This document shows, one piece after another, positions 2,228 to 61,067 of a stretch of DNA of 64,000 bases (within the stretch, counting starts at the first letter, position 1; the number at the start of each line of letters is the position of its first letter). Origin of the DNA: Syntrophales bacterium (lineage in GTDB: Bacteria; Desulfobacterota; Syntrophia; Syntrophales; UBA2210); the NCBI GenBank assembly GCA_963662405.2, contig CAXXKT010000001.1, forward strand, positions 128,001 to 192,000, in the 5' to 3' direction. The notes below the pieces were generated by a model that was not told the origin of the DNA, made no database searches, and saw only the letters and a program-made list of their open reading frames with translations. The translations under genes and the position numbers were made by a program.

Positions 2228-2283
2228 CATTAACACAGAGTTCACCGGGGCGCTTACGCATCCGGTGAAACAACTTGTTCAGC
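2228..2283 (-). other. attC site, array 1
   Basis: Minus strand GCTGAAC...GTTTCACCGGATGCG-TAAG-CGCCCCGGTGAAC-tctgt-GTTAATG; imperfect palindrome with extra bases overlapping the gene stop. Confidence 0.8.
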
Positions 2284-2613
2284 ATTCGTGCTTTTAGACT
2301 CCGGGAGTGTGCCGGTTTTTAGTCGATACTCGTAGGTCTGTTCCTTTTTGCATCGGTTTACGATGGTTGTCTCATTAACGGGTGCTCCCATTGTCCAGTA
2401 GACTATTTCGTCTTCATCGAAATACGTAATACGTTTCTTGTAAAAGTGCCCCTCGTATCCGTATGATCTGATATGCCCGACAAGCTGAATAAATAATTCT
2501 TCGTCAAGGCGGTCACGTACAATATACTCGTGTGGCCAAGTAGGCGCATAGGTCTTGGCAAACGTCCACTTCTGCTCTGTGATAAAAGCTTTGAGGTTGG
2601 TGGGAAGCTTCAT
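2254..2613 (-). CDS. Hypothetical cassette protein
   Basis: ORF from MKLPTNL ending inside attC; start chosen downstream of the previous gene's stop. Confidence 0.75.
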   Translation of the reverse strand: MKLPTNLKAFITEQKWTFAKTYAPTWPHEYIVRDRLDEELFIQLVGHIRSYGYEGHFYKKRITYFDEDEIVYWTMGAPVNETTIVNRCKKEQTYEYRLKTGTLPESKSTNAEQVVSPDA

Positions 2614-2647
2614 CGTCTCATTCCTGTTCGGTGTCCCGGATGGCCTT

Positions 2648-3226
2648 TCAATATGGGATTCGTTCGTCCAGCCCGCGAATTGTCTCAGGTGCTGCAATAA
2701 CGAGTTGTCCGCGATTCTTCTCGCTCTTGGTTCCGATATGATTGTCAGCCGGATATAGCGCCGTGTCTACAGGATGGTTGTTCCTCAGATTCCAACCGAT
2801 GCACCCTTCAATGTGTTTTCGCAATTGAGGGTCAACCTCTACTGGGGCAAAGAAGATGTTTAGAACGGACACATATTTGATGACTGAACCATGGATGGTC
2901 TCGTATGCGTCAATCTGCTTATGCGGTCCATCTGGTGATTTGTCTCTCCACAGCCCCGGCCAAATGAGTTCGCAGATGCCTTGTTGCGCCTTGTCGGGAT
3001 CGAATATACCATAGTTGAGTCCGAGGATATGGATGAGGTGTTCCCGTTGTCGTTTTGCGAGAGACACCGTCTCTCCCACGTAGTGCACCATGTGTGTACG
3101 GTCAGCATGTTGCTGAATAGTCCATAGATATACTCCGGCAACACTGGCGCATGGTGCCGTGAAAACAGAATTATGACGATCCAGAAAGCTGAATGGCCCA
3201 GTAAAGTTTAGATTAAGCGTTTCCAT
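2648..3226 (-). CDS. Cassette protein, GIY-YIG nuclease-like
   Basis: GVYLW...VHYVGET..LAKR..EH motif; starts just after GTTCGGC. Confidence 0.6.
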   Translation of the reverse strand: METLNLNFTGPFSFLDRHNSVFTAPCASVAGVYLWTIQQHADRTHMVHYVGETVSLAKRQREHLIHILGLNYGIFDPDKAQQGICELIWPGLWRDKSPDGPHKQIDAYETIHGSVIKYVSVLNIFFAPVEVDPQLRKHIEGCIGWNLRNNHPVDTALYPADNHIGTKSEKNRGQLVIAAPETIRGLDERIPY

Positions 3227-3244
3227 GTGTTCCGTATCCTGGTT

Positions 3245-3281
3245 GCCGAACAATGTTTATATGGATCCTGATAAAAACCTA
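3245..3281 (-). other. attI-like site, array 1
   Basis: TAGGTTTTTATCAGGATCCATATAAACATT-GTTCGGC; 32/33 identical to 30267-30299. Confidence 0.7.
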
Positions 3282-3359
3282 TTTTCCTTCCTGCTATACG
3301 TACCAAAGTGGTGATTGCAACTGAGGTAATTTAGGTTCATCATCTGTCTGTATTTCTTA

Positions 3360-4532
3360 TTGATTCAGGATAAGGAGGCAGAGATGACCATGAAAGACGA
3401 TACTACACGGAAGGCAGCAATGTCTTCTGCAGTTACAGAACATCCCACCGCAACGACATCCTGGCATTACCAGACTCGTTTCCGTTTTTCATTACATCGT
3501 GATGGAAGTGTTGAGACACTCGCTACGATTTTGCAGCATCTTTCCCACATGGATCTTCCGGGCACGGATCATGTTGCGGCCTATCTGCGTTACCTGACCT
3601 ATCGTAACCGGCGCCCCCGGACGTTGACAAGTCGTTTTGGTTCCATAGTTTTGTTCCTCGCCATGGTGCGTGACAGCGGGAAGACACGTATTGAAGACGT
3701 TACCAGGAGAGATATTGAGTGCTTTATCGAGCACGAGCAGGACAGGGGCAATAAGATTACGACGATACGGACAAAGCTCGTCAATGTGCAAGCCTTTCTG
3801 CGCTATCTCGTGGAGGAGGAGATTGTTTCCCCGGATGTGTTTGGCAGGAGGATACGGTTGCAGCTGCCGGAGCGGCTGCCGAGGGCTATGGATCCTGACG
3901 ATCTACAGAAGCTGTTATCCGTGATTGACGATACCCGGGACCGAGCCATGATCATGGTACTGTTGAGGACGGGGATGCGCATCGGCGAGTTGCTCAATAC
4001 GAAGGTATCAGATGTCCACATCGGGGAACGGAGGATAGAGATTTACGAAGGCGAGAAGAACCGCCTGGGGCGCGTGGTGTATCTCAGTGACGATGCGATC
4101 CGTGCGCTCCGGAGGTGGTTGCAGGAGAGGAATCCCTGGGAGGCGTACCTTTTTTCCACTCATAGAAGCATATACCAGATGTCGTACAGCACCGCCCGTC
4201 TGATCTTCCATCGATATCTTGAGAAGGCGGGGTTACGTGACCGGGGCTATACGCTCCATACGCTTCGGCACACCTTTGCAACGGAGTTTCTCAACGCTGG
4301 CATGCGCCTGGAGTGTCTCCAGGTGCTGCTGGGTCACCGGAGTATCGAGGAGACCAGGCGCTATGCCAGGCTTACCGACAAGACCCGCGAGGAAGAGTAC
4401 TTTCGGGCCATGGCCCGGATAGAAGGGAGGGATAGTGATGGACATAACCAATGTCATCGTGAACTGGCGGCGGTTTCTGAAACGGAGAAACTGTTCGCCC
4501 AATACCGTGAAGAACTATCTGAATCTCATTAA
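3360..4532 (+). CDS. Tyrosine recombinase A with N-terminal SAM-like domain
   Basis: TGMRIGE, HTLRH, LLGH, TRRY motifs; start uncertain. Confidence 0.92.
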   Translation: MIQDKEAEMTMKDDTTRKAAMSSAVTEHPTATTSWHYQTRFRFSLHRDGSVETLATILQHLSHMDLPGTDHVAAYLRYLTYRNRRPRTLTSRFGSIVLFLAMVRDSGKTRIEDVTRRDIECFIEHEQDRGNKITTIRTKLVNVQAFLRYLVEEEIVSPDVFGRRIRLQLPERLPRAMDPDDLQKLLSVIDDTRDRAMIMVLLRTGMRIGELLNTKVSDVHIGERRIEIYEGEKNRLGRVVYLSDDAIRALRRWLQERNPWEAYLFSTHRSIYQMSYSTARLIFHRYLEKAGLRDRGYTLHTLRHTFATEFLNAGMRLECLQVLLGHRSIEETRRYARLTDKTREEEYFRAMARIEGRDSDGHNQCHRELAAVSETEKLFAQYREELSESH

Positions 4533-5331
4533 ACACTTTGTTGTCTGGGCGGACGTGCCCGTTGAGGAGGTGACGCATGCAACGGTATCGCGCTACATAG
4601 AGTATCTGATGCAGAAGCGGCTATCGCCCAAGACCGTCAACTGTCATCTGAACGGTATTCGTCAGTTCTATCACTATCTGCGGGAAGAGGAAGGGATCGG
4701 TATTGTCAATCCCATCAGGAACAAACATACACAGAAGATGCCCCGACCCCTTCCCCGGCATTTACGAGACGAGCAGGTGGATCGTTTCTTTAACGTTGTG
4801 AATGGACACCGTGACCGTGCCATGTTCATGCTCATGCTCCGTTGCGGTCTCAGGGTGGAAGAGGTTGCCACCCTTGCCATCGGTGCCATAGACATCAAAC
4901 GCAGGGCTATCTTGATTGAGGACGGCAAGGGTGCAAAGGACCGGGTCGTGTATATGAGTAATGATGTGATTCAGTCACTGGCAGCCTATCTGAGAGTACG
5001 GCCGGCATCCCGGGCACGGAAGATCTTTCTGGCAGAGAAAGAGCCGTGCAGGGGCCAGCCCATCTCCATCCGCGGCATTCAACGGCGCATGGAACACTAT
5101 GCCCGCAAAGCGCGGATCAAAATGTCCTGTCATCATCTCCGGCATACGATGGCTACGCAGATGCTCAATGCCGATGCTGATCTGTGTACGATTCAGGATC
5201 TTCTCGGCCACAGCAATATAAAAACCACCCAGAGGTATTGCCGTGTATCGAACATGAAGGTTCAGAGAGATTACTTCAATGCCATGGAGGTCATTATGCA
5301 CCGAAGGGCCTGCAACCCACATAACACTTGA
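4438..5331 (+). CDS. Tyrosine recombinase B (XerC/D-like)
   Basis: CGLRVEE, GKGAKDR, HHLRH, LLGH, TQRY; GGAGG RBS; overlaps recombinase A. Confidence 0.92.
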   Translation: MDITNVIVNWRRFLKRRNCSPNTVKNYLNLIKHFVVWADVPVEEVTHATVSRYIEYLMQKRLSPKTVNCHLNGIRQFYHYLREEEGIGIVNPIRNKHTQKMPRPLPRHLRDEQVDRFFNVVNGHRDRAMFMLMLRCGLRVEEVATLAIGAIDIKRRAILIEDGKGAKDRVVYMSNDVIQSLAAYLRVRPASRARKIFLAEKEPCRGQPISIRGIQRRMEHYARKARIKMSCHHLRHTMATQMLNADADLCTIQDLLGHSNIKTTQRYCRVSNMKVQRDYFNAMEVIMHRRACNPHNT

Positions 5332-5509
5332 CGGAACAGAGAATATGTGAAATGGTAAACAACAACTAACCGCATAGAATCAATAGGTAAATCAGACTAT
5401 AGTACGTATAGCTTCCTGTAGTTGAGAAAAACAAGGGTGAAGAAGAAGTAGAATATTTCTTCCTGCAATCATTAGGAAAATAGTCGCTGTTGTCACTATT
5501 TTTCAAGAC

Positions 5510-8500
5510 TTATACGGCGTTATTTTTGGACTTCAAGATAATAGTGTCTGTATAAGCTTTTTGAAAAAGGTCGCTTTCTGCCGTACCGCTTGTCAATCCC
5601 GATGCAAGATGATTGAAAATTCTTTTTTTAGACTCAATCTCATATTCAGCGATCATTTCTGCTAATAACGATTTCGATCTGTTTTCTATATCTCTGTCCA
5701 TATCAATCCCATAGGCAAATTCCACGACGTCTTTATATATACTCCAAGCTTGTGCCCAGTATTTTATATCTTCGTGGTCACGTCTTATTCTCTTTAAAAG
5801 TTCAAGAGATATAGACAGAAATGATCTCGCTAAGAAGTTAAGCTTGTCCCTTTCTGCTTTTTGAACGAACTGTATTTTTTTGAACCAAACATACCAAATA
5901 GCTGTAATTATATTTTGTTCAACTAATATGCCATCCTCTTTACTGATCATGTATGATAAAAATTGTCCAATCTCGGTCAATGCGTTTTTGTAATCCCCTT
6001 TAAACCACCAAATAGCATTTATGAATGAATTGAAGGCTTGGTGATTATTTAATATCTCCAAATAATTCTCTATGCTTCCCCCCGCCTCTGAAAGATCATC
6101 TTCGAGAACAATCAATATATCCTTATAGTTTATCGGCATTCCAACCACATTAAATGCGCATAGCTGGGCGAATTTCTCTGCGGCTTCTTTTTGAGTTATT
6201 ACCTTCTTTTCTTTTAATATCGTTATTATATCGATTGTAGATATAGTATCTTCATAATGATTCTTACCACAAACATAGAGCCTTGATATTGCATCATCTG
6301 TATAAAATATGGGTTTTAATGAGTCATAAACAGACTTTATTTTATCTAATTCACTGAAAATATTATTTTCATCTATTATATCTTTACTTGAAGGTTGTTG
6401 AATCTGTTCAACATATCTTGATAATAATTCAACTATATCTTTAGCTTTGGTTGCATAGGGGATAAAAACAAATTGTTGAGCCAACATCTGTAAGTTAGCG
6501 ATTGAGTCTTTTGCGATTGCAATTTTAGGAAATATATCAAAAATGTATTCTAATAATGCTAAGTCGAATAAAATCAACAAAGCCACATCATCAATAAGAG
6601 GCATTCGCCCTCTAAGGTTCTCTATTCTTCTTGGCACATAGGGCCCGGGGCTAATAGTCAGCTGATATTGCAGATCATCCTTTCCGGTTATCTTGGACAA
6701 CTCCCACAGGTGAATAAAGTTCGAAACGTTCAATAAAAAATGATGCCTGATTAAATAAGGAACAGGAAGCGTGCCGCTGCTTAAAAGATTTTCATTCCGC
6801 TGGTACCATTCCCTTTTTTCTTTTGTGAATCCTGTTATAGTTTCTAGTTGAGATAATAGATCTTCGTGCGATTTTTCTTTTACATGGAATGATCTTAAAA
6901 CTTTTGACTCTGGAAATCTCTCTGTATATTTCTTAAGCCGTTTTTGAAACTCTTGAACGTTCTCATCTTGAACCGTTTTTTCAGGATCAAGTGTTGCCAC
7001 AAAGAAATTTAACAAATAAAGTCCTTCTTCAGCTTCATCATTTTGGTCACACAATTGGCCATATTTTAAACATATATCAATCAACCTCTCACTCTTTGGA
7101 TTGATATACATTTCAATGTTAAACAACATCCTCAAAAAATGTACCTTCTGCTTTTGATAAGTTGCTTTCTCAAGAAGTCGGGTGACCAAGGTTTTGGCTT
7201 TTTCGATCAGACCACATCTTGCTGATATATTTATATAGATTTCAAGTGCAAACGGGTCATGTTTTTCTCCTTGTGAGATTTCTTCTAAAAGTGTTAATGA
7301 TTTTCCTGTTTCTCCAATTCCATCTAGTGCTAAAGCCTCAAATGCTTTAAACTGAGAGTTGGTTGAAAATCTGATTTGTGCCTTGCGGGATGTTGCTAAA
7401 ACGCCATGCCAGTCTTGGACTGTTACTTTAGCCTGACAAAGAATAGTGTATTCGCTGTCTAGTAAATCCCTCTCCGAAATGATATCAATCGAAATTTCAA
7501 TAATTTTTTGTGCTGCGGCGTTTTCATATGGGTTAAGGTTATTAAAAAGTTGAGCTAATAATTGATTGTGTTTGTGACCTTCTTTGTAAACATCATATAG
7601 TTTTTCAATTGCCTCAGGCTTTTTTAACGCTTCCTGATTTGCGTGCAAAATAAAATCATATACTGCGATCAATGACCTTGAATTAGGGACCGTTTGTAGT
7701 GCCTCAAGAAACTTGTCTCTTTCAGTATACTTCATGAGATCATTAGCGCATTCAGCTGCAATTGCGATAACGGTGTCATAGTTAGCGGGTTTTTCTTTGA
7801 TTAGATCGTCAAGTATTTCAATAGCTAATTTGACCACTTCCGCTTTATCGTTTTTCCAATAAGTTAAAATGATTTTATTGGCTTTATTGTTTAGTGTATT
7901 TGGTAGCTTACATAATTGCCGCTCTGCAATGGTTCGATCACTTGTATGCATTGCAACTTGAAACAAACTTTCCTGTACAATTTGAATGGATGGTCTGATG
8001 TCTGCCAATTTAACGAGGTGTTTTTTAACGATTTCTGGCTCATTAAAATACATGCCTAAAATAGAGAATATATCGATCATCGATTGAACGTCAGGGGGGT
8101 ACCCTAATTTATCAGCTAAATTCATCGCAGATATTAACTCTATCCATGCGTTCTTTAATATTTCCGGATTCATGTCAGGAGTGCCTGCGAAAGATATCGC
8201 TTTGTCATCAGGAGTTTTTCTGAATCCAAGATTGAAGTATGATCTGGCTTTTAATGATCTTAAACTTAGTTCTTGTCTATCAGTTAAATCTTGTTCTGAG
8301 AATGCTTTGTTGACTTGGTTTATACAGTCATTGTATGAGCCTGAAAGCAAATGTATAAGCGCTTTAAGGACGAAAATGTCTTGTTCGTCCTGGTTTTCTA
8401 AAATTTTAAAGGCTTCTTCATATCTTTCGTTTAAAGCCAGCAATTTTGACTTCAGCCGAAGGTAATCAAGATCATTCTTTTTTTCTATCTCTGATAAAAT

Positions 8501-9478
8501 GCCATCAATTGTTTTGTCGTCTTTCCTTTCATCCGGAATTCTCGATTCTAAATAGGCGAGATGATATTTTTGAAACTCCTTAGAAGTTAGATGGGCTTGC
8601 TTGTGTAAGTTGAGTGCTTCTTCACGTTTCCCAACAAGACTTGCCAAGTAGGCTCTTTGGTAATAGTATTCAGATTGTTCATGCTGACTTGCTTCTTCTA
8701 ATTGATCTGCTAATTTATCAAGCCTGTCTTGAGCTAGTATTGCGTTATTTAAAGATAGAATCTCGGAGACTTTTTTTAATTCATACGCAAAACTACCTTC
8801 TGGCGCATCTAACCAAGGTGTCTCAGTTTTGTTAAGGATTGTATCGAGAGCTACTTTATTGGTCCCAAAAATGCTTCCAATCTGATTAATCTTATTTATA
8901 GGATCAGAATATTTTTTCTCTACTATATCGTATATTCCTTCCAGAACCCTCTTTTTTTCTAAACGGTTGTTTAAGTATGGCAAAACGTTTAGACTTGAGT
9001 TTAAGACATTTTCGACAGGAATGTGAAATGTGTGTGTATCCTCGCCTAAATGATCGAGAGTTGGCTTTCCTGCTCGAAGCTGGTCAATTTTTTCATCCAT
9101 CCACAAATAGTAAGCTGTACACTTCCTAGGTTCTTCATCTTGGGTAAGATCCGCAAACACCAACATAACTGGGTTTTCGATTCTTATATAATAATTTAAA
9201 TTTCGAATGTCTAAAGGTTGAGAGAAATGTTTACCATCAGCACTGAGCCATTTATTTCTGCCATCCTTTATCTGTGCTGAACCCTTTATTTGAGCATTAA
9301 ACACGTTCTTATAATGCCCTTGTTCAACGATTTGCACTTGCATGTCTAAACCAGCATCAGCATCACCATCAGTCTGAGTTGGTCTCCATGACTTGGGATG
9401 ACAGCTGTTAAACGTCATAACTGCAAAATGCCCTATTTCTTGTGAAACAGATTCTTTTGGTAACTTAGTCTCTTTCAT
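5510..9478 (-). CDS. 1322-aa DUF4365-like PD-(D/E)xK nuclease + TPR-like repeats + probable C-terminal PIN domain; defence candidate
   Basis: DAGLDMQV...AQIKGS at N-terminus; long helical middle; LIDDVAL...FYTDD at C-terminus; AT-rich. Confidence 0.7.
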   Translation of the reverse strand: MKETKLPKESVSQEIGHFAVMTFNSCHPKSWRPTQTDGDADAGLDMQVQIVEQGHYKNVFNAQIKGSAQIKDGRNKWLSADGKHFSQPLDIRNLNYYIRIENPVMLVFADLTQDEEPRKCTAYYLWMDEKIDQLRAGKPTLDHLGEDTHTFHIPVENVLNSSLNVLPYLNNRLEKKRVLEGIYDIVEKKYSDPINKINQIGSIFGTNKVALDTILNKTETPWLDAPEGSFAYELKKVSEILSLNNAILAQDRLDKLADQLEEASQHEQSEYYYQRAYLASLVGKREEALNLHKQAHLTSKEFQKYHLAYLESRIPDERKDDKTIDGILSEIEKKNDLDYLRLKSKLLALNERYEEAFKILENQDEQDIFVLKALIHLLSGSYNDCINQVNKAFSEQDLTDRQELSLRSLKARSYFNLGFRKTPDDKAISFAGTPDMNPEILKNAWIELISAMNLADKLGYPPDVQSMIDIFSILGMYFNEPEIVKKHLVKLADIRPSIQIVQESLFQVAMHTSDRTIAERQLCKLPNTLNNKANKIILTYWKNDKAEVVKLAIEILDDLIKEKPANYDTVIAIAAECANDLMKYTERDKFLEALQTVPNSRSLIAVYDFILHANQEALKKPEAIEKLYDVYKEGHKHNQLLAQLFNNLNPYENAAAQKIIEISIDIISERDLLDSEYTILCQAKVTVQDWHGVLATSRKAQIRFSTNSQFKAFEALALDGIGETGKSLTLLEEISQGEKHDPFALEIYINISARCGLIEKAKTLVTRLLEKATYQKQKVHFLRMLFNIEMYINPKSERLIDICLKYGQLCDQNDEAEEGLYLLNFFVATLDPEKTVQDENVQEFQKRLKKYTERFPESKVLRSFHVKEKSHEDLLSQLETITGFTKEKREWYQRNENLLSSGTLPVPYLIRHHFLLNVSNFIHLWELSKITGKDDLQYQLTISPGPYVPRRIENLRGRMPLIDDVALLILFDLALLEYIFDIFPKIAIAKDSIANLQMLAQQFVFIPYATKAKDIVELLSRYVEQIQQPSSKDIIDENNIFSELDKIKSVYDSLKPIFYTDDAISRLYVCGKNHYEDTISTIDIITILKEKKVITQKEAAEKFAQLCAFNVVGMPINYKDILIVLEDDLSEAGGSIENYLEILNNHQAFNSFINAIWWFKGDYKNALTEIGQFLSYMISKEDGILVEQNIITAIWYVWFKKIQFVQKAERDKLNFLARSFLSISLELLKRIRRDHEDIKYWAQAWSIYKDVVEFAYGIDMDRDIENRSKSLLAEMIAEYEIESKKRIFNHLASGLTSGTAESDLFQKAYTDTIILKSKNNAV

Positions 9479-27350: not shown

Positions 27351-27444
27351 TAATGAGTACGAATGAAGGCTGTCTTTGTTTGCTTCCTGTAGTCGATAAA
27401 AACCAGAGTGAAGAAATAGTAGTGGTTTCTTTCAGTACTCATTA
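27351..27444. repeat. 94-bp unit with 10-bp terminal inverted repeats, containing the conserved array-distal segment
   Basis: TAATGAGTAC...GTACTCATTA; right part similar to 5412-5474 and 2190-2232. Confidence 0.6.
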
Positions 27445-27508: not shown

Positions 27509-28243
27509 TTATGTTTTCGCCATCGCTTTTGAAAGATTACCTGATTTTTTCCACCCATAAAAAGTTTTTTCAAAAAATTCTTTAGACGCTGTATTTTCAA
27601 TCAGGACAGGTAATATACCATTATAATTTAGGAAAAGCTTTTCATTGTATGGTAGCTGTCCAGTATGGTTTGAAATAAAAAACACCCATGTTAAACCCGC
27701 CAACACAAACATATAACATCGATGTCCATCAAATCTTGTTTCTTTAGCGAGCATCATCATTTTGCTGGTAAAATCGAAATAGGACGGGGTAAAGATTATG
27801 AGGCATCCATAGTCATAAGATGCACCTGGATTACCCTCGTATAACATAGAACGTAATTTTTCTTCATGAGGTCCTAAGCTAACGTTTGTAAATTGATGAA
27901 GATTTGATGCTCCTGCTCGCCATATAAGCGAAAGCTGAAATAGTTTAAACTTTGTATAATCAATATTTTTTATTATGATAAAATCACTCATTTTCTCCAT
28001 ACTTAGCTTATTACCACTAAAAAACACTTGAGCAGCATATGTTTCCCATTTATTCAGTCTGTCTTCGCATTCTCGGCAAAGCATCTTTTCCCTAAAGCCC
28101 TTTTGCCATTTTCTTACTTTTGGTGCACCTTCTATTTGAACGAATTGATGCTTTTCCTTGGCATAAAGAGCTTTGAAAAGAAATTCTGGGACTATATGCG
28201 AATTACATAGTTCTTTTTCTTTAAGGCACAATCTACATTTCAT
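27509..28243 (-). CDS. Cassette protein, HNH-endonuclease-like
   Basis: CRLC....L..SHIVP...LCRECE N-terminal motif. Confidence 0.65.
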   Translation of the reverse strand: MKCRLCLKEKELCNSHIVPEFLFKALYAKEKHQFVQIEGAPKVRKWQKGFREKMLCRECEDRLNKWETYAAQVFFSGNKLSMEKMSDFIIIKNIDYTKFKLFQLSLIWRAGASNLHQFTNVSLGPHEEKLRSMLYEGNPGASYDYGCLIIFTPSYFDFTSKMMMLAKETRFDGHRCYMFVLAGLTWVFFISNHTGQLPYNEKLFLNYNGILPVLIENTASKEFFEKTFYGWKKSGNLSKAMAKT

Positions 28244-28253
28244 AGTGAATTGA

Positions 28254-28315
28254 TGCTAACGGGCTGCTCAGGGGCGCGCGGCTTTTGCGCGTTTACTGCA
28301 GCAGCAATGTTATAG
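28254..28315 (-). other. attC site, array 2, second cassette
   Basis: CTATAAC...GCTGCAGTAAACGCGC-loop-GCGCGCCCCTGAGC-agccc-GTTAGCA; CTATAAC is complementary to the GTTATAG that opens the cassette. Confidence 0.9.
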
Positions 28316-28333
28316 CAACGTCTTATGATTCAA

Positions 28334-28936
28334 TTATAGAGGGTCTTCATTAGATAAACGTATTTCAAAAGTGTTACCTAAATACATAATATTTAGACAG
28401 TTTCCATGGCCTAAAAATACTCTTTCCATACCTTCTTTAGCTGGTTGAAGTCGGTATTCGACCTGAGTAACCTTTGCTGCAACCGCAATTTTAACACCGA
28501 AAAATGTATCTGGATCGTTTTTTATTGCTTTGATAATTGAATAAACCTTTTGCTTGGGGCAAAGAAGTTCCAGCTTAAGCTCTGGCGAATGCCTTGAGGC
28601 CCTTATCAATAGCTGGTAGTTGATATCATCACATGTAGCCACATTCTCCAAGGTTCCGATAAACAGAATGGGTTTGCCAATTAACCATACTGCCTCTAAA
28701 TCAATCGAGTAGAGACATCGGGAATGCTTTTTAATAATGGATTCTCTCCAGCTAGTATCAGCTCCCGAATCCCTAGCAAAAGCTTGGACTGCCAAGCGTA
28801 GGGCCTCTTCTTGAGCTTTTTCTTTAGCGCCAGAATCTGCGATATCTTTCTGACGATCTGAGCATGATAGCATACACAAGCTAAGAATGGCCGCAGTTAC
28901 AATAATGAGCCTCTTAAATCGATGTATATGTGTCAT
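28334..28936 (-). CDS. Cassette-encoded putative lipoprotein
   Basis: Start after GTTATAG-AGGTAGG; signal peptide ending LCMLSC. Confidence 0.7.
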   Translation of the reverse strand: MTHIHRFKRLIIVTAAILSLCMLSCSDRQKDIADSGAKEKAQEEALRLAVQAFARDSGADTSWRESIIKKHSRCLYSIDLEAVWLIGKPILFIGTLENVATCDDINYQLLIRASRHSPELKLELLCPKQKVYSIIKAIKNDPDTFFGVKIAVAAKVTQVEYRLQPAKEGMERVFLGHGNCLNIMYLGNTFEIRLSNEDPL

Positions 28937-28950
28937 GGGTTTTCCTACCT

Positions 28951-29024
28951 CTATAACGTTGTCTTCACCGGTGGCGACGAAGTGAAGTGGAATTGTCCCA
29001 TCCGAGTGCAAGGCATGGTTGGCA
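28951..29024 (-). other. attC site, array 2, first cassette
   Basis: TGCCAAC-catgc-CTTGCACTCGGATGG...CCACCGGTGAAG-acaac-GTTATAG with extrahelical bases. Confidence 0.9.
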
Positions 29025-29027
29025 TTT

Positions 29028-30248
29028 TCATCCAAATGAAAAAGACGTATTCTTGCTAAATACTTTTATCTCACCATCGGCGGAGATTTTCACAGAAAGC
29101 CCATAATCTTTCAGTGTGTTCGCTGCTGCAAGTCGCGCACCTCCGTCTGACCCTGCTTCCAGCTTAAGTATCGCTCCTGCAGAAATAAACTTTCCTGTAG
29201 CATCAAGAACCACCGCACCGTCAATACCGAGAATTTCTTGCCTCAATCTTCTATCTGTATTTTGAAAGGTAGCATTATTTATAGCCGCTAATAATACCTT
29301 GGTTTTGATAGATCGATTATTTTCGAAATGATCTGATTCATTAACCCTTTGATCATCATGAAATTTTTTAGATTTCGCCTTTTGAAGTATCCCGATGCAA
29401 GCACCAGTACGTGCAAATGAAACGTCAATGATTGACTCATAAAGGCTTTCCCTCAGATTTCTATCAAGTTTCCTGCTTTTAAACGCTAATTGTCTTAATA
29501 CTGAATTGTAAGCGAATAGCCTCCATTCCCCTCTTCTTTTAGCAAATATGAGGGTCCCAGAGTTGAAAACTAATATTTCGCCATTTCTATTTAATATAAG
29601 GGCGATCTTGTTGTTTCCCTCAGTATATTTTGCAAAGGTGGTGTAGCGGAAAGGTGAGTTGTGAGTTTCTGGTGCGAGGTTAAGTGTTTGGTATCCAATA
29701 AGATTATTTCCGATGGAAAATTCCACCAATGTATCGTACCCATTTGTCAATACCTTCGAAAAATCATTCTTTGTATATTCTTCAAAAGTTGTACCATTTG
29801 ACGAAATAACATTCATATCAATGCCAATAGATACAGCTATCCTATTACCTTCATATGTCTCTCCTGACCAACGTTCCAATTTTTCAATAAATCTGGCTAT
29901 CTCCAGAATTTTATTAGAATCGTCATCCTCAACCAAAGATTTTGCTATAACCCTACTAACAGTGTTCGATATCAGATACTTTTGAATTTGTTCATCAAGT
30001 GTTGCATAATCATTAGCTATATTAAATACATCTCTGATAATTTTTGTTTCATTAGATTCAAAAGGTTGGGCTCTATAAACAATATACCGTCCTCCTTCTT
30101 CACAAAGAATCCCAATTTTAGAGCCTCCGCTTAGGTGTGATACATCTTTCTTCTGATTTCCTGAATCTTGTTCAAAAGATATATCAATACCAGAGAAAAA
30201 TTTAACAATTTGGTTAGAGAGTATAAAGTCAACTAAATCTTTTTTCAC
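29028..30248 (-). CDS. Cassette protein with C-terminal DisA_N/diadenylate-cyclase-like domain
   Basis: TGACIG, IDGAVVLD..G, GGARLAAA, VKISADG. Confidence 0.75.
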   Translation of the reverse strand: MKKDLVDFILSNQIVKFFSGIDISFEQDSGNQKKDVSHLSGGSKIGILCEEGGRYIVYRAQPFESNETKIIRDVFNIANDYATLDEQIQKYLISNTVSRVIAKSLVEDDDSNKILEIARFIEKLERWSGETYEGNRIAVSIGIDMNVISSNGTTFEEYTKNDFSKVLTNGYDTLVEFSIGNNLIGYQTLNLAPETHNSPFRYTTFAKYTEGNNKIALILNRNGEILVFNSGTLIFAKRRGEWRLFAYNSVLRQLAFKSRKLDRNLRESLYESIIDVSFARTGACIGILQKAKSKKFHDDQRVNESDHFENNRSIKTKVLLAAINNATFQNTDRRLRQEILGIDGAVVLDATGKFISAGAILKLEAGSDGGARLAAANTLKDYGLSVKISADGEIKVFSKNTSFSFG

Positions 30249-30262
30249 ATCTGCTCCTTATA

Positions 30263-30299
30263 TACCAACAATGTTTATCTGGATCCTGATAAAAACCTA
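30263..30299 (-). other. attI-like site, array 2
   Basis: TAGGTTTTTATCAGGATCCAGATAAACATT-GTTGGTA; GTTGGTA pairs with TGCCAAC of the first attC. Confidence 0.7.
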
Positions 30300-30561
30300 A
30301 ACACGGCAGTTTTGCTGTATGAAGCCTCTCACGAAAAACAAAAAGCCCCACCTCTCTTTGATGAGAAACAGGGCTTTGATAATCAGACCATAATCCACTC
30401 CTTGGTTACAGCCAGTCACAAGCAGAAAAAATCAAGATCAAGATTTCATCTAGCTAACTCTATGATGATGTATTGTCAAGAGATTTTACCATGAGACCTT
30501 CAATCAGTATTCATCGATTTTCTTCTGGAATTATTTTGAGCAGTAGTAGATACCGTTCTTG

Positions 30562-31530
30562 TCAAGCGAAAGCTGGTTTATAATTTGGGTCATACTTTTT
30601 GCCGGATTTCAGGATTCCAAAGATAATGTGCACCAGCTTCCTCATTATCGCACAGACAATCACTTTCCCGTTTTTTCCTTTCTCTTTAAGGCGATTATAA
30701 AAAGCAATCATAACGGGATTACATTGGATCGATACCAGTGCCGGCATATACAGAGCTTTTCTGAGCCGCGCATGTCCGATTTTGCATAACCTGGGTTTGC
30801 CTTTAATAGATGATCCTGAAAGTGTTTCCCGTGGCGCAAGCCCGATGAACGCCACCAGTTCCCGCACATGACTGAATTTGTCCAGATCATCCAATTCTGC
30901 CAGGATGTGAGGAATGGTTGCCGTGCCGATACCTGGAATGGAAGCCAAGAGCCCTTTCTTGTTTTTCAGGTTCGGATCCCGATCAATTAGATCAGCAATC
31001 TGTTCCCTGATTTTCTCTATTTCCTTATCAAGATAGTTAATGTGTTCTCTGATCAATGGAATAACTGATTCATGAGCTGCACTTATTCGATTCTTCTCCT
31101 GACTTCGCATGTTGATCAGACTGTCAACTCGCCTGACCAACGCCCTCAGGGCTCTGATCTCCGGTGAGGGTGGACTCCAGGGATCTGGTCTCATAGCCAG
31201 ACAGAATCTGGCAATCAAGGCTGCATCAACCTTATCCGTCTTGGTGCGAATCAACTCGCTCTGGCCAAACCCTTTGATGCGAGCGGGATTGACAACACTG
31301 ACCACATGGCCGGTTTCATGGAGATAGATCGCCAATTCCTCTCCATAGTTGCCGGTCGCCTCAAGGCAGGCATGTACCTTATGAACTCCCTGTCTCTCCA
31401 GCCAGATCGTCAGTGTCTCAAAACCTTCCACCGTATTTTTGCAGGTTTTGTGTTTTGTCTTCCCCTCTACAAGAAGTGCAACGTCGAATTTCTGTTTTGC
31501 GATATCTATCCCAAGAACCGATACTGACAT
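30562..31530 (-). CDS. IS110 transposase (IS621-like size)
   Basis: LGIDIAK, LEATG, KTDKVDA, GLAP...SGSS. Confidence 0.96.
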   Translation of the reverse strand: MSVSVLGIDIAKQKFDVALLVEGKTKHKTCKNTVEGFETLTIWLERQGVHKVHACLEATGNYGEELAIYLHETGHVVSVVNPARIKGFGQSELIRTKTDKVDAALIARFCLAMRPDPWSPPSPEIRALRALVRRVDSLINMRSQEKNRISAAHESVIPLIREHINYLDKEIEKIREQIADLIDRDPNLKNKKGLLASIPGIGTATIPHILAELDDLDKFSHVRELVAFIGLAPRETLSGSSIKGKPRLCKIGHARLRKALYMPALVSIQCNPVMIAFYNRLKEKGKNGKVIVCAIMRKLVHIIFGILKSGKKYDPNYKPAFA

Positions 31531-31574
31531 ACTACAATACTCCCTCGTACATTAATCTAATCTCCAGTAAAATA

Positions 31575-31735
31575 GCTTCGTTCGAATCAACCTTGTAAGT
31601 GCAAACTCATTCCCATCTGAGAAGGTTTATGATACCGTACGAGTTATTGAACAAAGCTGTGGGAAGAGGATCTACTCTACAAATCATGCTCTCTGGCATC
31701 AGGTGAAACACAGATTCACTCTCCCCATTTTACCC
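31575..31735 (-). ncRNA. Putative bridge RNA of IS110 copy A; ends approximate
   Basis: Two loops with segments matching target (GTTTCACCT, GTAG) and donor junction (ACGGTATCA, ACAAG). Confidence 0.7.
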
Positions 31736-31875
31736 CAGTGTCTCAAGATCTCTTATATCTCCTAATCCCCTTCTAGAACACAAGGTGCTATACGTAACAA
31801 AATGGTGGTTGCAACTGAGCCATCATAGGTTCATCATCTATCTGTATTTCCTGTTGATTTGGTGGGAAGGAGAGA

Positions 31876-33039
31876 GTGATGAGCCAAAAAGCCACAGAAA
31901 CGTATTCTGTCTTATCTCCGTCATCCCTGACTGGTTTGAGAAACACCGATCATGGTGAGGGGATACAGCACACCGTTGTTTTCAAACCGGGCATTCCTGA
32001 AAAAACAGGGTGCATTGAGGGCCTTCGATACCAGCAACAGTCAAAAGCACTTCGATGGGCATTAGATCGTATTGCGGCCTGGAACCTGCCTGGCACGGAG
32101 CATGTTGAGGAATATTTTCGGAGCATGTATCGGCGGAACTTCAGGCCCAGAACATACGCTAGCAACTTGGCAGCGATTCATGTCTTTCTCACCGTTGTCA
32201 GGGATTCGGGAAAGGCCCATTTGGAAGAGGTTACCAAAGGTGACATTGAAGCCTTTATCGAGCATGAGCAGGATCGAGGGTTGATGTTATCAACAGTACG
32301 GACGAGGCTGCATTGCGTCAATGCCTTTTTAGGCTATGCAATAGATTCAGGTATTGTTGGCACCGATGTCCTGGCACGAAGGATCCGCCTGAAAAAGCCG
32401 GAGACATTGCCTCGAGCCATAGATCCTGATGACGTCAAGCTTCTTCTCTCCGTTATCGATCATCCCAGAGATCGAGCCATGGTCACGGTACTTCTACGGA
32501 CGGGAATGAGAATCGGCGAGTTACTCGGTACCATGGTACGGGATCTTCACATGAAAGACCGGAGGGTTGATATTTACGAAGGGGAGAAGAATCGTATCGG
32601 GAGAGTGGTCTATCTCAGCGATGATGCGGTCAGTACTTTGAAGGCATGGCTCAAGATGAGAGATGCCCATAAGGAGTTTCTCTTTTATGCCCGAGGTAAA
32701 AGTAGCATGTCTTACAGCACTGCTCGTCAGATATTTGTAGATTATCTCACGAAAGCCGGTCTTGCTTATAAGGGATACTCCCTTCATGCGCTTCGCCATA
32801 CCTTTGCCAGTGAGCTACTAAATGCCGGTATGAGGATCGAGTGTCTCCAGCCACTGATGGGGCATACATCTCTGGATGTCACCAGGCGCTATGCACGGCT
32901 TACGGACAAGACAAGAGAGGGAGAGTACTTCAGAGCCATGACAATCATAGAAAGGGGGAAAATTGATGGACATTACCGATGCGATCATCAGGTACAGGCG
33001 TTTCTTGAAGAGAAGGAACATCTCACCGAACACTATTAA
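31876..33039 (+). CDS. Tyrosine recombinase A
   Basis: TGMRIGE, HALRH, LMGH, TRRY; paralogue of 3360-4532. Confidence 0.92.
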   Translation: MMSQKATETYSVLSPSSLTGLRNTDHGEGIQHTVVFKPGIPEKTGCIEGLRYQQQSKALRWALDRIAAWNLPGTEHVEEYFRSMYRRNFRPRTYASNLAAIHVFLTVVRDSGKAHLEEVTKGDIEAFIEHEQDRGLMLSTVRTRLHCVNAFLGYAIDSGIVGTDVLARRIRLKKPETLPRAIDPDDVKLLLSVIDHPRDRAMVTVLLRTGMRIGELLGTMVRDLHMKDRRVDIYEGEKNRIGRVVYLSDDAVSTLKAWLKMRDAHKEFLFYARGKSSMSYSTARQIFVDYLTKAGLAYKGYSLHALRHTFASELLNAGMRIECLQPLMGHTSLDVTRRYARLTDKTREGEYFRAMTIIERGKIDGHYRCDHQVQAFLEEKEHLTEHY

Positions 33040-33859
33040 GAACTATTTGAATAGTCTCAAACGGTTTGTGATCTGGCTCGATGTACCGATCGAGGAGGTT
33101 ACATACCATAAGATTACAGCGTATATAGATTGCATGATCGGCCAACGGTTACGTCCGAAGACTATCAACTGTCATCTGAATACGGTTTGTCAGTTTTATC
33201 ACTACCTCATCGAAGAGGAAGGGCTCCCGATCGTGAATCCTGTCAGGAAACCAAATATCATGAAACTCCCCCGGGGACTTCCCAAACATCTCAGAGAAGA
33301 CCACATAGATATCCTCTTCAATCATCTGAAAGGATATCGGGATCGAGCCATGTTTACGCTCATGCTCCGATGTGGCCTGCGAGTGGAAGAAGTGGCTCAT
33401 CTTTCACTCGGCAACATTGATCTTAAACGCAGAATGCTCCTCATCCAGGATGGCAAGGGTGCCAAAGATCGAATTGTCTATATCAGTAACGATGCCCTTC
33501 ATGCTCTCGTGAAATATCTCTGGGTGAGGCCCGCAAACAAAGTAAGGAGGGTTTTTCTGGTAGAGAAAGGGCCATGCACGGGACGTCCTCTCTCCATTCG
33601 CGGCATTCAAAAGCGCATGGAGTATTATGCGCGTAAAACAGGACTCAAGATATCCTGTCACCATCTTCGTCATACAATGGCCACTCAGATGTTGAATGCA
33701 GATGCTGATCTGTCTACCATCCAGGATCTCTTGGGACATAACTCAATCAGGACAACACAACGATACTGCCGAATATCAAATCTCAAAGTACAGAGAGATT
33801 ACTACAAAGCCATGGAGGTGATCATGCAGAAGACGGCTGGCAACTCAAATAATCCTTGA
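32966..33859 (+). CDS. Tyrosine recombinase B
   Basis: CGLRVEE, GKGAKDR, HHLRH, LLGH, TQRY; paralogue of 4438-5331. Confidence 0.92.
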   Translation: MDITDAIIRYRRFLKRRNISPNTIKNYLNSLKRFVIWLDVPIEEVTYHKITAYIDCMIGQRLRPKTINCHLNTVCQFYHYLIEEEGLPIVNPVRKPNIMKLPRGLPKHLREDHIDILFNHLKGYRDRAMFTLMLRCGLRVEEVAHLSLGNIDLKRRMLLIQDGKGAKDRIVYISNDALHALVKYLWVRPANKVRRVFLVEKGPCTGRPLSIRGIQKRMEYYARKTGLKISCHHLRHTMATQMLNADADLSTIQDLLGHNSIRTTQRYCRISNLKVQRDYYKAMEVIMQKTAGNSNNP

Positions 33860-33950
33860 CGGGATAGAGGATTTATGAAACTTTAAACACAGCATAACAC
33901 CATAATATCAATGGTAAATATAGATTATGTTACGTATAGGTAGGTGCAAG

Positions 33951-36031: not shown

Positions 36032-37268
36032 AGATACCGTTCTTGTCAAGCGAAAGCTGGTTTATAATTTGGGTCATACTTTTTGCCGGATTTCAGGATT
36101 CCAAAGATAAGGTGCACCAGCTTCCTCATTATCGCACAGACAATCACTTTCCCGTTTTTTCCTTTCTCTTTAAGGCGATTATAAAAAGCAATCATAACGG
36201 GATTACATTGGATCGATACCAGTGCCGGCATATACAGAGCTTTTCTGAGCCGCGCATGTCCGATTTTGCATAACCTGGGTTTGCCTTTAATAGATGATCC
36301 TGAAAGTGTTTCCCGTGGCGCAAGCCCGATGAACGCCACCAGTTCCCGCACATGACTGAATTTGTCCAGATCATCCAATTCTGCCAGGATGTGAGGAATG
36401 GTTGCCGTGCCGATACCTGGAATGGAAGCCAAGAGCCCTTTCTTGTTTTTCAGGTTCGGATCCCGATCAATTAGATCAGCAATCTGTTCCCTGATTTTCT
36501 CTATTTCCTTATCAAGATAGTTAATGTGTTCTCTGATCAATGGAATAACTGATTCATGAGCTGCACTTATTCGATTCTTCTCCTGACTTCGCATGTTGAT
36601 CAGACTGTCAACTCGCCTGACCAACGCCCTCAGGGCTCTGATCTCCGGTGAGGGTGGACTCCAGGGATCTGGTCTCATAGCCAGACAGAATCTGGCAATC
36701 AAGGCTGCATCAATCTTATCCGTCTTGGTGCGAATCAACTCGCTCTGGCCAAACCCTTTGATGCGAGCGGGATTGACAACACTGACCACATGGCCGGTTT
36801 CATGGAGATAGATCGCCAATTCCTCTCCATAGTTGCCGGTCGCCTCAAGGCAGGCATGTACCTTATGAACTCCCTGTCTCTCCAGCCAGATCGTCAGTGT
36901 CTCAAAACCTTCCACCGTATTTTTGCAGGTTTTGTGTTTTGTCTTCCCCTCTACAAGAAGTGCAACGTCGAATTTCTGTTTTGCGATATCTATCCCAAGA
37001 ACCGATACTGACATACTACAATACTCCCTCGTACATTAATCTAATCTCCAGTAAAATAGCTTCGTTCGAATCAACCTTGCAAGTGCAAACTCATTCCCAT
37101 CTGAGAAGGTTTATGATACCGTACGAGTTATTGAACAAAGCTGTGGGAAGAGGATCTACTCTACAAATCATGCTCTCTGGCATCAGGTGAAACACAGATT
37201 CACTCTCCCCATTTTACCCCAGTGTCTCAAGATCTCTTATATCTCCTAATCCCCTTCTAGAACACAAG
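36032..37268 (-). mobile_element. IS110-family element, copy B
   Basis: Differs from copy A by a few SNPs; target GT-AG-GTG. Confidence 0.93.
36046..37014 (-). CDS. IS110 transposase
   Basis: Two amino-acid differences from copy A (KTDKI/V, VHL/I). Confidence 0.96.
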   Translation of the reverse strand: MSVSVLGIDIAKQKFDVALLVEGKTKHKTCKNTVEGFETLTIWLERQGVHKVHACLEATGNYGEELAIYLHETGHVVSVVNPARIKGFGQSELIRTKTDKIDAALIARFCLAMRPDPWSPPSPEIRALRALVRRVDSLINMRSQEKNRISAAHESVIPLIREHINYLDKEIEKIREQIADLIDRDPNLKNKKGLLASIPGIGTATIPHILAELDDLDKFSHVRELVAFIGLAPRETLSGSSIKGKPRLCKIGHARLRKALYMPALVSIQCNPVMIAFYNRLKEKGKNGKVIVCAIMRKLVHLIFGILKSGKKYDPNYKPAFA

Positions 37269-37350
37269 GTGAAACACAGATTCACTCTCCCCATTTTACC
37301 CCAGTGTCTCAAGATCTCTTATATCTCCTAATCCCCTTCTAGAACACAAG
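37187..37350. repeat. Exact 82-bp tandem duplication of the IS110 left end
   Basis: 37187-37268 equals 37269-37350. Confidence 0.95.
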
Positions 37351-37357
37351 GTGAAAA

Positions 37358-40495: not shown

Positions 40496-43189
40496 ATGGA
40501 CAAGAAAATCACCTTAACGATCGATGGGAAGGCGTGTGAGGCTTCTCCAGACCAAACCATCTTGGATGTCGCGAGGGCTGCCGGAATTCATATCCCCACT
40601 CTCTGTTATTTCAAGGGAACCACCAATGTGGGAGCCTGCAGGGTATGCGTCGTGGAGGTGGAAAACGCCCGGTCGCTGGTTGCGTCGTGTTGTATGCCGG
40701 TCAGCCAGGGAATGGTCGTCACGACCAACTCGGAGCGGGTCCTTACGGCCCGAAAGATGGTAGTGGAACTCCTCTGGTCGTCCGGAAATCACAATTGTCT
40801 TCAGTGCGAACAGAACGGAAACTGCGAACTCCAGGACCTCGTCTATGAACTGGGTATCGAACAGCCTCGCTTCGAGATCGAATCCCCGGGGTACGAAACA
40901 GAAGAAACCAATGCCATGATACAGCGGGACCTGAACAAGTGCATCCTCTGCGGGAGATGCGTCCGCGTCTGTAACGAGATCCAGGTCCACGAGGTCCTCG
41001 ACTTTTCCATGCGCGGATCACACGCGAAGGTCGGCCCCGCCTTCGGTGAGGACTACATCGATTCGAACTGCGTCTTCTGCGGCTCATGTGTAGACGCCTG
41101 TCCCGTCGGTGCCCTGACGTTCAAACAGGCACGGTTCAAGGGGCGCCCGTGGGAGATCGAAAAAGTCCGTACCACCTGCCCCTATTGCGGCGTGGGATGC
41201 CAGATGGACCTCAACATCAGCGAGGGAAAGATCATCAAGGTCACGGCCGACCGGGAGTACGGCAAACCCAATGAGGGGATGCTCTGCTCGAAGGGGCGAT
41301 TCGGAATGAACTTTATCGACAGCCCCGACCGCCTGAAAATGCCCCTCATCCGCAAGAACGGGGAACTCCAGGAGGCGACCTGGAACGAGGCCTATGACTA
41401 CATCACGAAAAAGCTGACCGGCATCAAAGAAAAGAACGGCCCCGACAGTATCGCGGGGCTTTCCTCGGCCCGGGTCACCAATGAAGAAAACTATCTCTTC
41501 CAGAAATTCATGCGAGCGGTGATCGGAACAAACAATGTCGATCACTGCGCCCGTCTCTGACACTCCGTCACGGTAGCCGGTCTGGCTGCCACATTCGGAT
41601 CAGGGGCCATGACGAATTCGATCGAGGAGATAGAATTTACGGACGCGATCCTCGCCATCGGGACGAACACGACGGAGAATCACCCGGTGATCGGATCGGG
41701 GGTGAAACGGGCGGTCCGCCGGCGCGGCGCCAAGCTGATCGTGATCGATCCCCGGAAGATCGGTCTCGTCGACTACGCCACCATCTGGCTGCGTCCCCGG
41801 CCCGGCACGAATGTCGCCGTCCTTAACGGCCTGATGAACGTGATCATCGAGGAGAGACTCTACGCCAAGGAATATGTGGCGGAGCGCACCGAGGGGTTCG
41901 AGGCGTTGAAGGAGGCCCTTGCGAAATACACCCCCGAGCATGTCTCGGGGATCACCGGCGTACCGGCCGAGGATATCAGGAAAGCCGCCCGGATATATGC
42001 CGAGGCGAAGAGCGCTTCCATCCTGTACGCCATGGGAATCACCCAGCACACGCACGGTACCGACAATGTGAAATCCTGCGCCAATCTGGCGATGCTGTGC
42101 GGCAATGTCGGGATCGAAGGGGGCGGTGTCAACCCCCTCAGGGGCCAGAACAACGTCCAGGGGGCCTGCGACATGGGGGCGCTTCCCAACGTCTTCCCCG
42201 CATACCAGCAGGTCGCCAATGACGAGGCCCGGGTAAAGTTTGAACAGGCGTGGAACGCCTCGCTCCCCGCAAAACCGGGGCTGACGATCATGGAGATCAT
42301 GGACGCGGCCCACCGGGGAGACCTCAAGGCCCTGTATATCATGGGCGAAAATCCGATGATGTCGGACCCCGATCTCTCTCATGTCGAGGCGGCATTGAAA
42401 AACCTTGATCTTCTCGTTGTCCAGGATATCTTCCTGAATGAAACGGGGCAACTTGCCGACGTGGTCCTCCCCTCCGCCTGTTTTGCCGAAAAGGACGGGA
42501 CCTTCTCCAATACGGAGCGGAGGGTCCAGCGCATCCGCAAGGCCGTGGATGCCCCCGGCGAGGCGAAGGCCGACTGGCAGATCATCTCCGACCTGGCGAC
42601 GCGGATGGGGTACGCCATGAGTTATGCCTCCGCCAAGGAGATCATGGACGAGATCAACACCGTGACCCCCAGCTACGCGGGGATCACGTACGAGCGGATC
42701 GAAGAGGAAGGGCTTCAGTGGCCCTGCCCCACGCTCGAGCATCCCGGGACGAAATACCTGCACAAGGACAAGTTCTCCCGGGGACTGGGACTCTTTTCAG
42801 CGATCGAGTACCGGTCGTCTGAAGAGGTACCGGACAAGGAATACCCCTTCTTCCTCACGACCGGACGCGTTCTCTACCACTTCCACACGGCGACCATGAC
42901 CCGCAGGAGTAAAGGGCTCGTCGAGCGGTACCCGGAGAGTCTGGCGGAGATTAACCCCACAGACGCCGGGAAGCTGGGAATCAAAGATGGAGACTTCGTG
43001 ACCGTCACATCGCGGCGCGGGAGTCTCAAGGTGAAGGCCAGCGTGGTGGAGACCCCGCCGGAGGGGACGATCTTCATGAATTTCCACTTCAGCGAGGCGG
43101 CGGTGAATCTCCTGACTAACCCCGCGCTCGACCCGGTGGGGAAGATCCCCGAATACAAGGTCTGCGCGGTGAAGATCGAGGCCGCGTAA
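40496..43189 (+). CDS. fdhF: Cytoplasmic formate dehydrogenase alpha subunit with NuoG-like Fe-S N-terminus, selenoprotein (UGA 41558-41560)
   Basis: [42 protein letters not shown]. Confidence 0.93.
41572..41590 (+). promoter_or_regulatory. SECIS hairpin
   Basis: GGTAGCC-GGTCT-GGCTGCC, 11 nt after the UGA. Confidence 0.85.
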
Positions 43190-43228
43190 ACATTCGTTAG
43201 AACCAAACCGCAACGCGGGAGTAAATAC

Positions 43229-43260
43229 AAAAGGAGACGGCTTCAGGGCCGTCTCCTTTT
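43229..43260. terminator. Bidirectional terminator between the convergent fdh genes
   Basis: AAAAGGAGACGGC-ttcagg-GCCGTCTCCTTTT. Confidence 0.9.
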
Positions 43261-43284
43261 ATTGTTTTGATCTGCTGCCTATTG

Positions 43285-61022: not shown

Positions 61023-61067
61023 CTTGATTTCGTCCTCTTGTCCTTGTAAGCAGACATTTCCGGAGCA

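Follow-up and report, generated by a model that had tools for sequence, protein, structure and literature searches.

A 2023 overview, in the portion available, lists five groups of tyrosine-recombinase transposons and states that transposition of RIT and GInt elements has not been reproduced in the laboratory (PMC10214605), and the RIT mechanism is left open in the accessible text of PMC5737581. In the Tn554 family, Tn552-II forms a circle with a 7-bp spacer that comes mostly from the left flank, and bottom-strand integration has been proposed for it (PMC12486829); SEs are described as behaving like Tn552-II but with a 6 bp spacer (PMC10214605). The accessible sections of Van Houdt 2012 (PMC3414803) cover trios, BIM and Tn554-like pairs that include one long protein, which is not the design described here, and a search of passages from Smyshlyaev 2021 and its preprint showed no such recombinase pair. 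What makes more than one tyrosine recombinase necessary for Tn554, RIT, SE and GInt elements is still unsettled; the family described here bears on it and is the smallest case that we found (two genes, no accessory protein, and single-chain fusions). No published description of this family was found in the literature searched, the main text of mostly open-access papers.

The window, by which we mean the whole 64,000-nucleotide stretch of Syntrophales DNA that was analyzed, holds the only two full copies of the family in its host genome (3.8 Mb, 3 contigs). An initial annotation had described two elements of 2118 bp and 2152 bp with 16-bp imperfect inverted repeats, a conserved left end, two overlapping recombinase ORFs with catalytic motifs, and no cargo. 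We confirmed the lengths at 3294-5411 and 31788-33939, and comparison of the ends gave 14/16 and 15/16 matches between the inverted repeats. The left ends of the two elements are 80% identical over 95 bp, and the elements as a whole share 68% DNA identity. All four recombinases contain PF00589 and a SAM-like domain, with R, K, HxxR, H and Y present in both recombinases of each element, and recombinases A and B are ~30% identical to one another. Neither element contains a cargo gene. Element 1 is laid out as follows.

3294-5411: element 1, 2118 bp, two recombinase ORFs between inverted repeats
3287..3293, plus strand: left 7-bp core, CTTCCTG, probably target-derived, judging by the polarity of other elements
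3294..3309, plus strand: left terminal inverted repeat, 14/16 against the right repeat, also seen in the family end consensus
3348..3365, plus strand: left subterminal motif, inverted partner of 5378-5395 (14/18), kept across the family
3384..4532, plus strand: recombinase A, 382 aa from an ATG behind AAGGAGG, in an ORF open from 3360
4438..5331, plus strand: recombinase B, 297 aa, overlapping A by 95 bp
5378..5395, minus strand: right subterminal motif, from the sequence and the family end consensus
5396..5411, minus strand: right terminal inverted repeat, from pairwise end comparison
5412..5418, plus strand: right 7-bp core, CTTCCTG, probably element-borne

The catalytic residues of element 1 are R207, K233, H300, R303, H326 and Y335 in recombinase A (390-aa numbering) and R140, K165, H233, R236, H259 and Y268 in recombinase B (298-aa numbering). 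The subterminal motif at 3348..3365 is a probable accessory binding site. A promoter scan of the left end of element 1 found no promoter.

Element 2 has the same plan, except that its left core is interrupted.

31788-33939: element 2, 2152 bp, two recombinase ORFs between inverted repeats
30546..30549, plus strand: GTAG, first 4 bases of the left core, cut off from the remainder by IS110
30550..31784, minus strand: IS110-family element in the left core, separate from the two-recombinase element
31785..31787, plus strand: GTG, last 3 bases of the left core
31788..31803, plus strand: left terminal inverted repeat, 15/16
31879..33039, plus strand: recombinase A, 59.5% identical to element 1 A
32966..33859, plus strand: recombinase B, 66% identical to element 1 B, overlapping A by 74 bp
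33924..33939, minus strand: right terminal inverted repeat
33940..33946, plus strand: right 7-bp core, GTAGGTG

The 7-bp flanking repeats that had been reported for both elements are exact at element 1, where CTTCCTG stands on each flank (the chance of an exact 7-mer at a fixed place is ~6e-5), but not at element 2 as it stands. There the left 7-mer reads CAAGGTG, which matches the right GTAGGTG at 5/7 positions, because the IS110 copy splits GTAG from GTG. Excising the IS110 copy in silico restores GTAGGTG, and the near-full-length IS110 copies in the genome are all bounded by GTAG and GTG (5/5), the same 7-mer that element 2 uses. A history in which the two-recombinase element came first and IS110 second gives a target half-site profile score of 4.59 versus -1.79 for the alternative, on a scale where the 10th percentile of real family sites is -1.4. 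Being the better match to the family half-site profile, the presence of element 2 before IS110 fits better, and insertion of IS110 first, followed by a 5/7 insertion of element 2, would yield the identical sequence with a less good fit. The second IS110 copy in the window (36034-37268) carries an 82-bp tandem duplication of its end (37160-37353).

The family belongs to sediment bacteria. Counting the window's own genome each time, a DNA search found family matches in 20 of 61 related genomes, and a protein search found the family in 13 of the phylum's 301 genomes. Scanning one genome per species gave 166 stretches, from which 77 loci were kept, mostly from deltaproteobacterial (Syntrophales, Desulfobacterales) and Nitrospirota bins; the few other taxon labels lie on short contigs, where mis-binning is possible. 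A metagenome scan seeded with a Nitrospirota member gave at least 584 stretches, of which 80 were kept. In all, 129 complete elements of 2022-2424 bp (median 2109 bp) were recovered. As simple ORF counts, exactly two long same-strand ORFs occur in 114 of the 129, one in 8, three in 6 and none in 1. As extracted from the 74 elements whose two proteins both passed a length filter, A has 286-401 aa and B has 265-337 aa, and the six catalytic residues R, K, H, R, H and Y are kept in 97-100% of the 74 A and 74 B proteins. The distance from the B match to the right end is 58-376 bp (median 98), a gap in which no ORF is common to the family. Insertions are mostly intergenic: of 63 tested sites, 3 lie within a reading frame that stays open for 50 codons to the left and to the right. 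Among the best matches listed, plasmid records gave nothing above ~34% protein identity and no family member; likewise, no family member was found among the 80 viral loci scoring best with profile B (identity no higher than 36%) or with the fused-protein profile. The genes are often labeled 'XerD' in one source database, and such labels hide the family in annotations. The family has spread in multiple copies to unrelated sites, and we judge it to be real and recently active.

The family is not a member of the RIT, Tn554, SE/GInt or Xer groups; at the integration step it would work most like Tn554. A and B each form one clade in quick trees, which single out no nearest outside family for either. 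Scores of the partner family on the two profiles (132-197 and 138-181 bits) equal or exceed those of the strongest outside references (118 and 148 bits); a short recombinase of Tn554-like type also ranks high among the outside matches of profile B (141.6 bits). On profiles A and B, RitA, RitB and RitC (six pHG1 proteins, identified as Rit from their size and gene order) reach 24-98 bits, which is less than either the partner family or the host XerC/XerD attains. Like RIT elements, the present elements are cargo-free and multi-copy, and their terminal inverted repeats enclose no genes except overlapping ones for tyrosine recombinases (PMC3414803, PMC10214605). RIT elements, however, have three genes (ritA-ritB-ritC), ~3.5 kb and 28-34-bp repeats, whereas the present family has two genes, a median of 2109 bp and 12-16-bp repeats with a subterminal motif, and its size range leaves no space for a third recombinase. 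A deleted RIT element was rejected on the grounds of profiles, trees and uniform length. The earlier proposal of a minimal two-recombinase family is supported, and the family is distinct from RIT and Tn554.

With the Tn554 family and the actinobacterial Tn554-like pairs the elements share two co-oriented tyrosine recombinases (PMC3414803, PMC12486829). The Tn554-family circular intermediate with its 7-bp spacer (PMC12486829) would have a counterpart in the circle that we propose here, and the Tn554 polarity, with the target 7-mer on the left and the brought-in 7-mer on the right, is seen in our relaxed clades and hidden in the window's clade. Unlike Tn554, the family has no recombinase above 600 aa and no tnpC, which some published actinobacterial Tn554-like pairs also lack according to the accessible text of PMC3414803; it has clear terminal inverted repeats, and it occupies many unrelated, mostly intergenic sites. 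The 7-mer carried by Tn554 is the left flank and changes with each hop, whereas that of the present family appears to be the right flank and stable (1/43 by comparative evidence, see below). Like SEs and GInts, the family would use strand-biased recombination, and it leaves a footprint on the right flank (PMC10214605). SEs and GInts have four core genes (intA-tfp-intB-srap or ginABCD) with one large recombinase, against two genes only here, and also differ in their 6-bp spacer from the left flank, few selected targets, cargo and occurrence in Gamma/Betaproteobacteria (PMC10214605). IntDOT of CTnDOT resembles the present system in its 7-bp-type overlap with identity needed only beside the first cleavage, but is a single arm-binding integrase on a large conjugative element (PMC2817482). 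XerC/XerD are likewise two simple recombinases of similar size and are the best family-level models; yet the window recombinases fall below the curated cut-offs (at best 205 vs 335 for XerC and 174 vs 330 for XerD, with the XerA cut-off also missed), the host XerC and XerD are at other genome loci, and the element sites are not dif-like.

We compared the flanks of 116 elements with at least 12 bases on both sides, representing 115 distinct insertion sites. Exact 7-bp repeats are present at 71 of the 115 sites and the flanks differ at 43, element 2 being uncounted; for the genome-derived complete elements (n=74), the repeat is perfect in 58 and imperfect in 16. The right 7-mer is common to 43/43 pairs of elements at >=95% identity that occupy different sites (the pairs are not independent), to 37/39 pairs at 85-95%, to 50/183 at 75-85% and to 61/360 below 75%. 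It is therefore inherited with the element and slow to change. The left 7-mer is common to 37/43 and 28/39 pairs in the two upper classes. The two window elements have different 7-mers because they belong to different lineages, as indicated by their 68% DNA identity. Outside the 7-mer, the target has a weak symmetric consensus, outward ~WAAT.C on both sides, that is unlike the element end.

Targets without an element were compared as paralogues at ~65-76% identity. Three empty paralogues of the element 2 site that span both flanks hold GTAGGTG once, rather than the two pre-existing copies that the initial annotation had named as the refuting case, and two further paralogues are without the full GTAGGTG. 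Flank searches at three mismatched insertions gave partial paralogues and no orthologous empty site. Two other candidates were set aside: a 98%-identical apparent empty site with one extra base (L156), which lies in a frameshifted remnant and is a possible assembly blend, and a paralogue (L178) with an uninformative deletion across the core. At element 1, four other genome copies of the right-flank repeat start with one CTTCCTG, a fifth is truncated, and the left flank is common to none. In run X4, from another study, a ~98%-identical element 1 has a different left neighbor and the same left CTTCCTG; on the right it follows the window sequence through only 4 of the 7 core bases, close to the end of its contig, a departure that the model below does not account for. 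A 38-bp right-end remnant of element 1's lineage on C2 is also followed by CTTCCTG. The 7-mer is thus very probably an element-borne crossover core that is inherited with the element. Given one-copy empty targets and a constant right 7-mer, ordinary circle-into-target integration by a tyrosine recombinase suffices to produce the repeats.

The mismatched sites reveal a polarity. The window's clade (27/29 perfect repeats) and a clade with the core CACCTAC (13/14) are strict, whereas two Nitrospirota-type groups with low branch support are relaxed (29/39 and 7/7 mismatched). In one long-contig genome (G061), CAGGGTG is the right 7-mer of each of five copies at ~100% identity, whereas their left 7-mers are CTTGGTG, CAGAGTG, CAGGGTG, CTTGGTG and GGAGGTG, that is, four different ones. 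In another genome (G062), four diverged copies all have CGTGGTG on the right and none has it on the left. Left and right match at positions 1-7 in 8, 4, 5, 11, 14, 15 and 16 of the 16 mismatched genome-derived elements, and in 15, 7, 12, 27, 33, 36 and 41 of the 43 mismatched elements when metagenome contigs, the source of 27 of the 43 and possibly chimeric, are included; agreement is concentrated at the 3' end, while the rest of the left 7-mer varies. Paralogues of two mismatched sites (L169, L181) are like the left 7-mer and unlike the right. Where a mismatched element has a neighbor at >=85% identity (33 cases), its right 7-mer equals the neighbor's right in 21 and its left equals the neighbor's left in 4. 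A right 7-mer that recurs as the left 7-mer of a different mismatched element was seen in just 1/43, and in the 39-member relaxed clade the common left 7-mers GTCGGTG (8 times) and GTAGGTG (3 times) never occur on the right. For the window's clade this polarity is borrowed from the relaxed clades, since perfect repeats would conceal it.

The left 7-mers are also non-random: GTC begins 8 of 18 GGTG-type sites in the relaxed clade, and none of 20000 draws from the background of this genome gave as many identical pairs as the 34 observed, the sites being related. Homology alone therefore does not pick the target, and a protein preference or a heteroduplex memory also acts. Left-type 7-mers are found at six relaxed-clade members whose repeats are perfect, and two pairs of cores are each other's reverse complement, which suggests rare resetting of a lineage's core.

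We favor, with a probability of about 0.65, a strand-biased model in which a circle with a right-flank spacer finds a matching target 7-mer and the bottom-strand product is fixed. The element would be autonomous, IS-sized and moved by two paralogous tyrosine recombinases, both of them needed. Its ends would be joined in a circle with the junction IR-7bp-IR, the spacer coming from the right flank. The circle would pair with a target 7-mer in which the last 3-4 bases, beside the bottom-strand cleavage site, weigh most. The bottom-strand product would be fixed, either by a one-strand exchange resolved by replication or by biased repair, leaving the target 7-mer on the left and the carried 7-mer on the right. 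In the window's clade the target would match at all 7 bases, hence an outcome that resembles a direct repeat. Capture of the left 7-mer or inverted insertion, both rare, would reset the core. By the established geometry of tyrosine recombinases, bottom-strand cleavage takes place where the overlap ends on the right. Bottom-strand exchange would hence require identity at the right edge and give the target-left, donor-right outcome, and both match the data. Since the right 7-mer is rarely another element's left (1/43), the circle should take the right flank. More speculatively, the element ends may be read by one recombinase and the target half-sites by its partner.

Two-strand Campbell integration and excision could lead to much of the same record without a single-strand step, if strict clades need 7-bp identity, relaxed clades tolerate mismatch like IntDOT, and repair or daughter loss gives the polarity. 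It accounts for the perfect repeats of the window clade (27/29) and the CACCTAC clade (13/14), IntDOT is reported to require identity only beside the first cleavage site (PMC2817482, available text), and recurring left/right pairs would suit a heteroduplex circle. Unbiased resolution, however, predicts target 7-mers equally often on the right and the left, and the observed split is 21 vs 4 of 33, so that we consider this account unlikely, though worth keeping in view. The Tn554/SE mode, in which the circle takes a copy of the left flank from the donor and leaves it to the right of the next insertion, would end in the same polarity, target left and brought-in right (PMC10214605, PMC12486829). 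It would suit the five identical copies in G061, provided that the one perfect-repeat copy was the sole donor, and also the six perfect-repeat relaxed-clade members with left-type 7-mers. Yet this mode is hard to reconcile with common left 7-mers that never appear on the right in the 39-member clade (1/43 overall), or with the four diverged G062 copies whose shared right 7-mer is never on the left, and we regard it as very improbable.

The notion, raised by the initial annotation, of a fixed 7-bp target recognized by the proteins and duplicated by a non-standard route would give the same genomic outcome in strict clades, and target 7-mers do recur non-randomly, with GTAGGTG or its reverse complement serving as the core in three separate clades. 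Against it, the flanks differ at 43/115 sites with the right one following the element lineage, 38 different right 7-mers stand beside nearly identical element ends, and the proteins are conservative recombinases with no gap-filling gene aboard; it is the least probable account of all. True target duplication is rejected because the right 7-mer follows lineage (43/43 pairs) and empty paralogous targets hold one copy. The overlap is nonetheless resolved in an unusual way, though not the one suspected: where the flanks differ, the target's 7-mer lies on the left and the element's own, passed on unaltered, on the right.

The strand-biased model predicts a circle junction. In 4 runs, no circle junction or skipped-element joint was found across window 2400-6400, a search of contigs only, which is silent on circles and excision. 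A bare palindrome in one genome (G722, L290:1498-1527) has 11-12-bp element-end arms, a 7-bp core-like spacer and no element body, a geometry equal to that of the predicted junction; the pattern occurred in 1 of 602 genome searches (0/301 and 1/301), and a reversed control also occurred once. Two viral contigs that match the junction pattern were rejected: they are AT-rich palindromes, their spacer has 8 bp, and they contain no genes of the element. At L187:2011-2037, a short end-like motif stands 7 bp beyond a right end.

A broader proposal, which we offer tentatively as possible rather than probable, is that these elements form a sixth group of tyrosine-recombinase transposons that needs no more than two proteins, or a single fused chain. 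The 7-bp circle spacer would be a heritable, swappable address, the same strand would leave and enter, and the ends would be bound by one recombinase while its partner binds a loose target. Were this true, swapping 7 bases of donor DNA would retarget insertion, and a swappable spacer would make a compact integration tool. The natural strict and relaxed variants, with 38 cores on near-constant ends, make the division of labor, the strand bias and the homology rules testable.

Profile B, searched against 1.84 billion representatives, matched 44 proteins of at least 560 aa among the 150 matches listed, and nearly all of the 44 have two recombinase units. In the 14 closest, when aligned, both active sites are intact; one is labeled Anaerolineae. 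The halves of the fused proteins group with A, B and other single recombinases, apart from Xer, IntI and Rit (support 93 in a quick tree), and quick trees gave no answer as to which half is sister to A or B. These relatives support the view that two recombinase units would act together. Fused genes were found in 3/401 and 2/251 genomes, which together gave four loci. Two of these are complete single-gene elements (2064 and 2079 bp, inverted ends of 15-16 bp), another is cut by a contig end and the last is bounded differently. The single-chain double recombinases (P0123-P0157; L376, L459, L378) have 604-695 aa and are the only gene of ~2.07-kb elements. In one genome (G934), fused elements lie within short tandem repeats of 7-bp period; three left ends share a 6-mer, and two right ends show it or a variant matching at the 5' end, a pattern that may mirror that of the two-gene elements at very few sites. 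At L377:1471-3413, a fused double recombinase gene lies between long inverted repeats, with its ribosome-binding site and start codon inside the repeat, resembling an invertible cassette. There is also a second class of double recombinases of ~620-870 aa (P0156, P0166, P0167 and about 27 more); the halves of four sampled proteins of this class group near XerC/XerD.

The surroundings of the window elements hold other repeats. A dispersed repeat at window 5412-5474, 27383-27444 and 2190-2232 starts exactly at CTTCCTG, has unrelated left neighbors in 5 of 6 copies, and sits at the downstream end of cassette-like runs; it may be the end of another mobile unit with the same core. Directly beyond element 1, window 5510-9478 encodes a 1322-aa protein with an N-terminal DUF4365 domain. 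On the other side, element 1 begins a few bases past one copy of a motif (window 3245-3281 and 30267-30299) that has 9 copies in the genome and heads minus-strand gene runs (2254-3253, 27509-30248). One of its copies, on C1 near 2214394, is ~1.5 kb from an integron-integrase-like gene (C1:2211900-2212950), and the copies of the motif are probably attI-like sites, dispersed through the genome and accompanied by cassettes. An unrelated 279-aa tyrosine recombinase (C2:404829-405668) lies near an IS3 and the element 1-lineage remnant. Elsewhere in the window are a 228-bp inverted repeat at 75% (42026-44454), a threonine-codon-type short repeat tract (59044-59198) and a 1371-bp tandem duplication (59699-62408).
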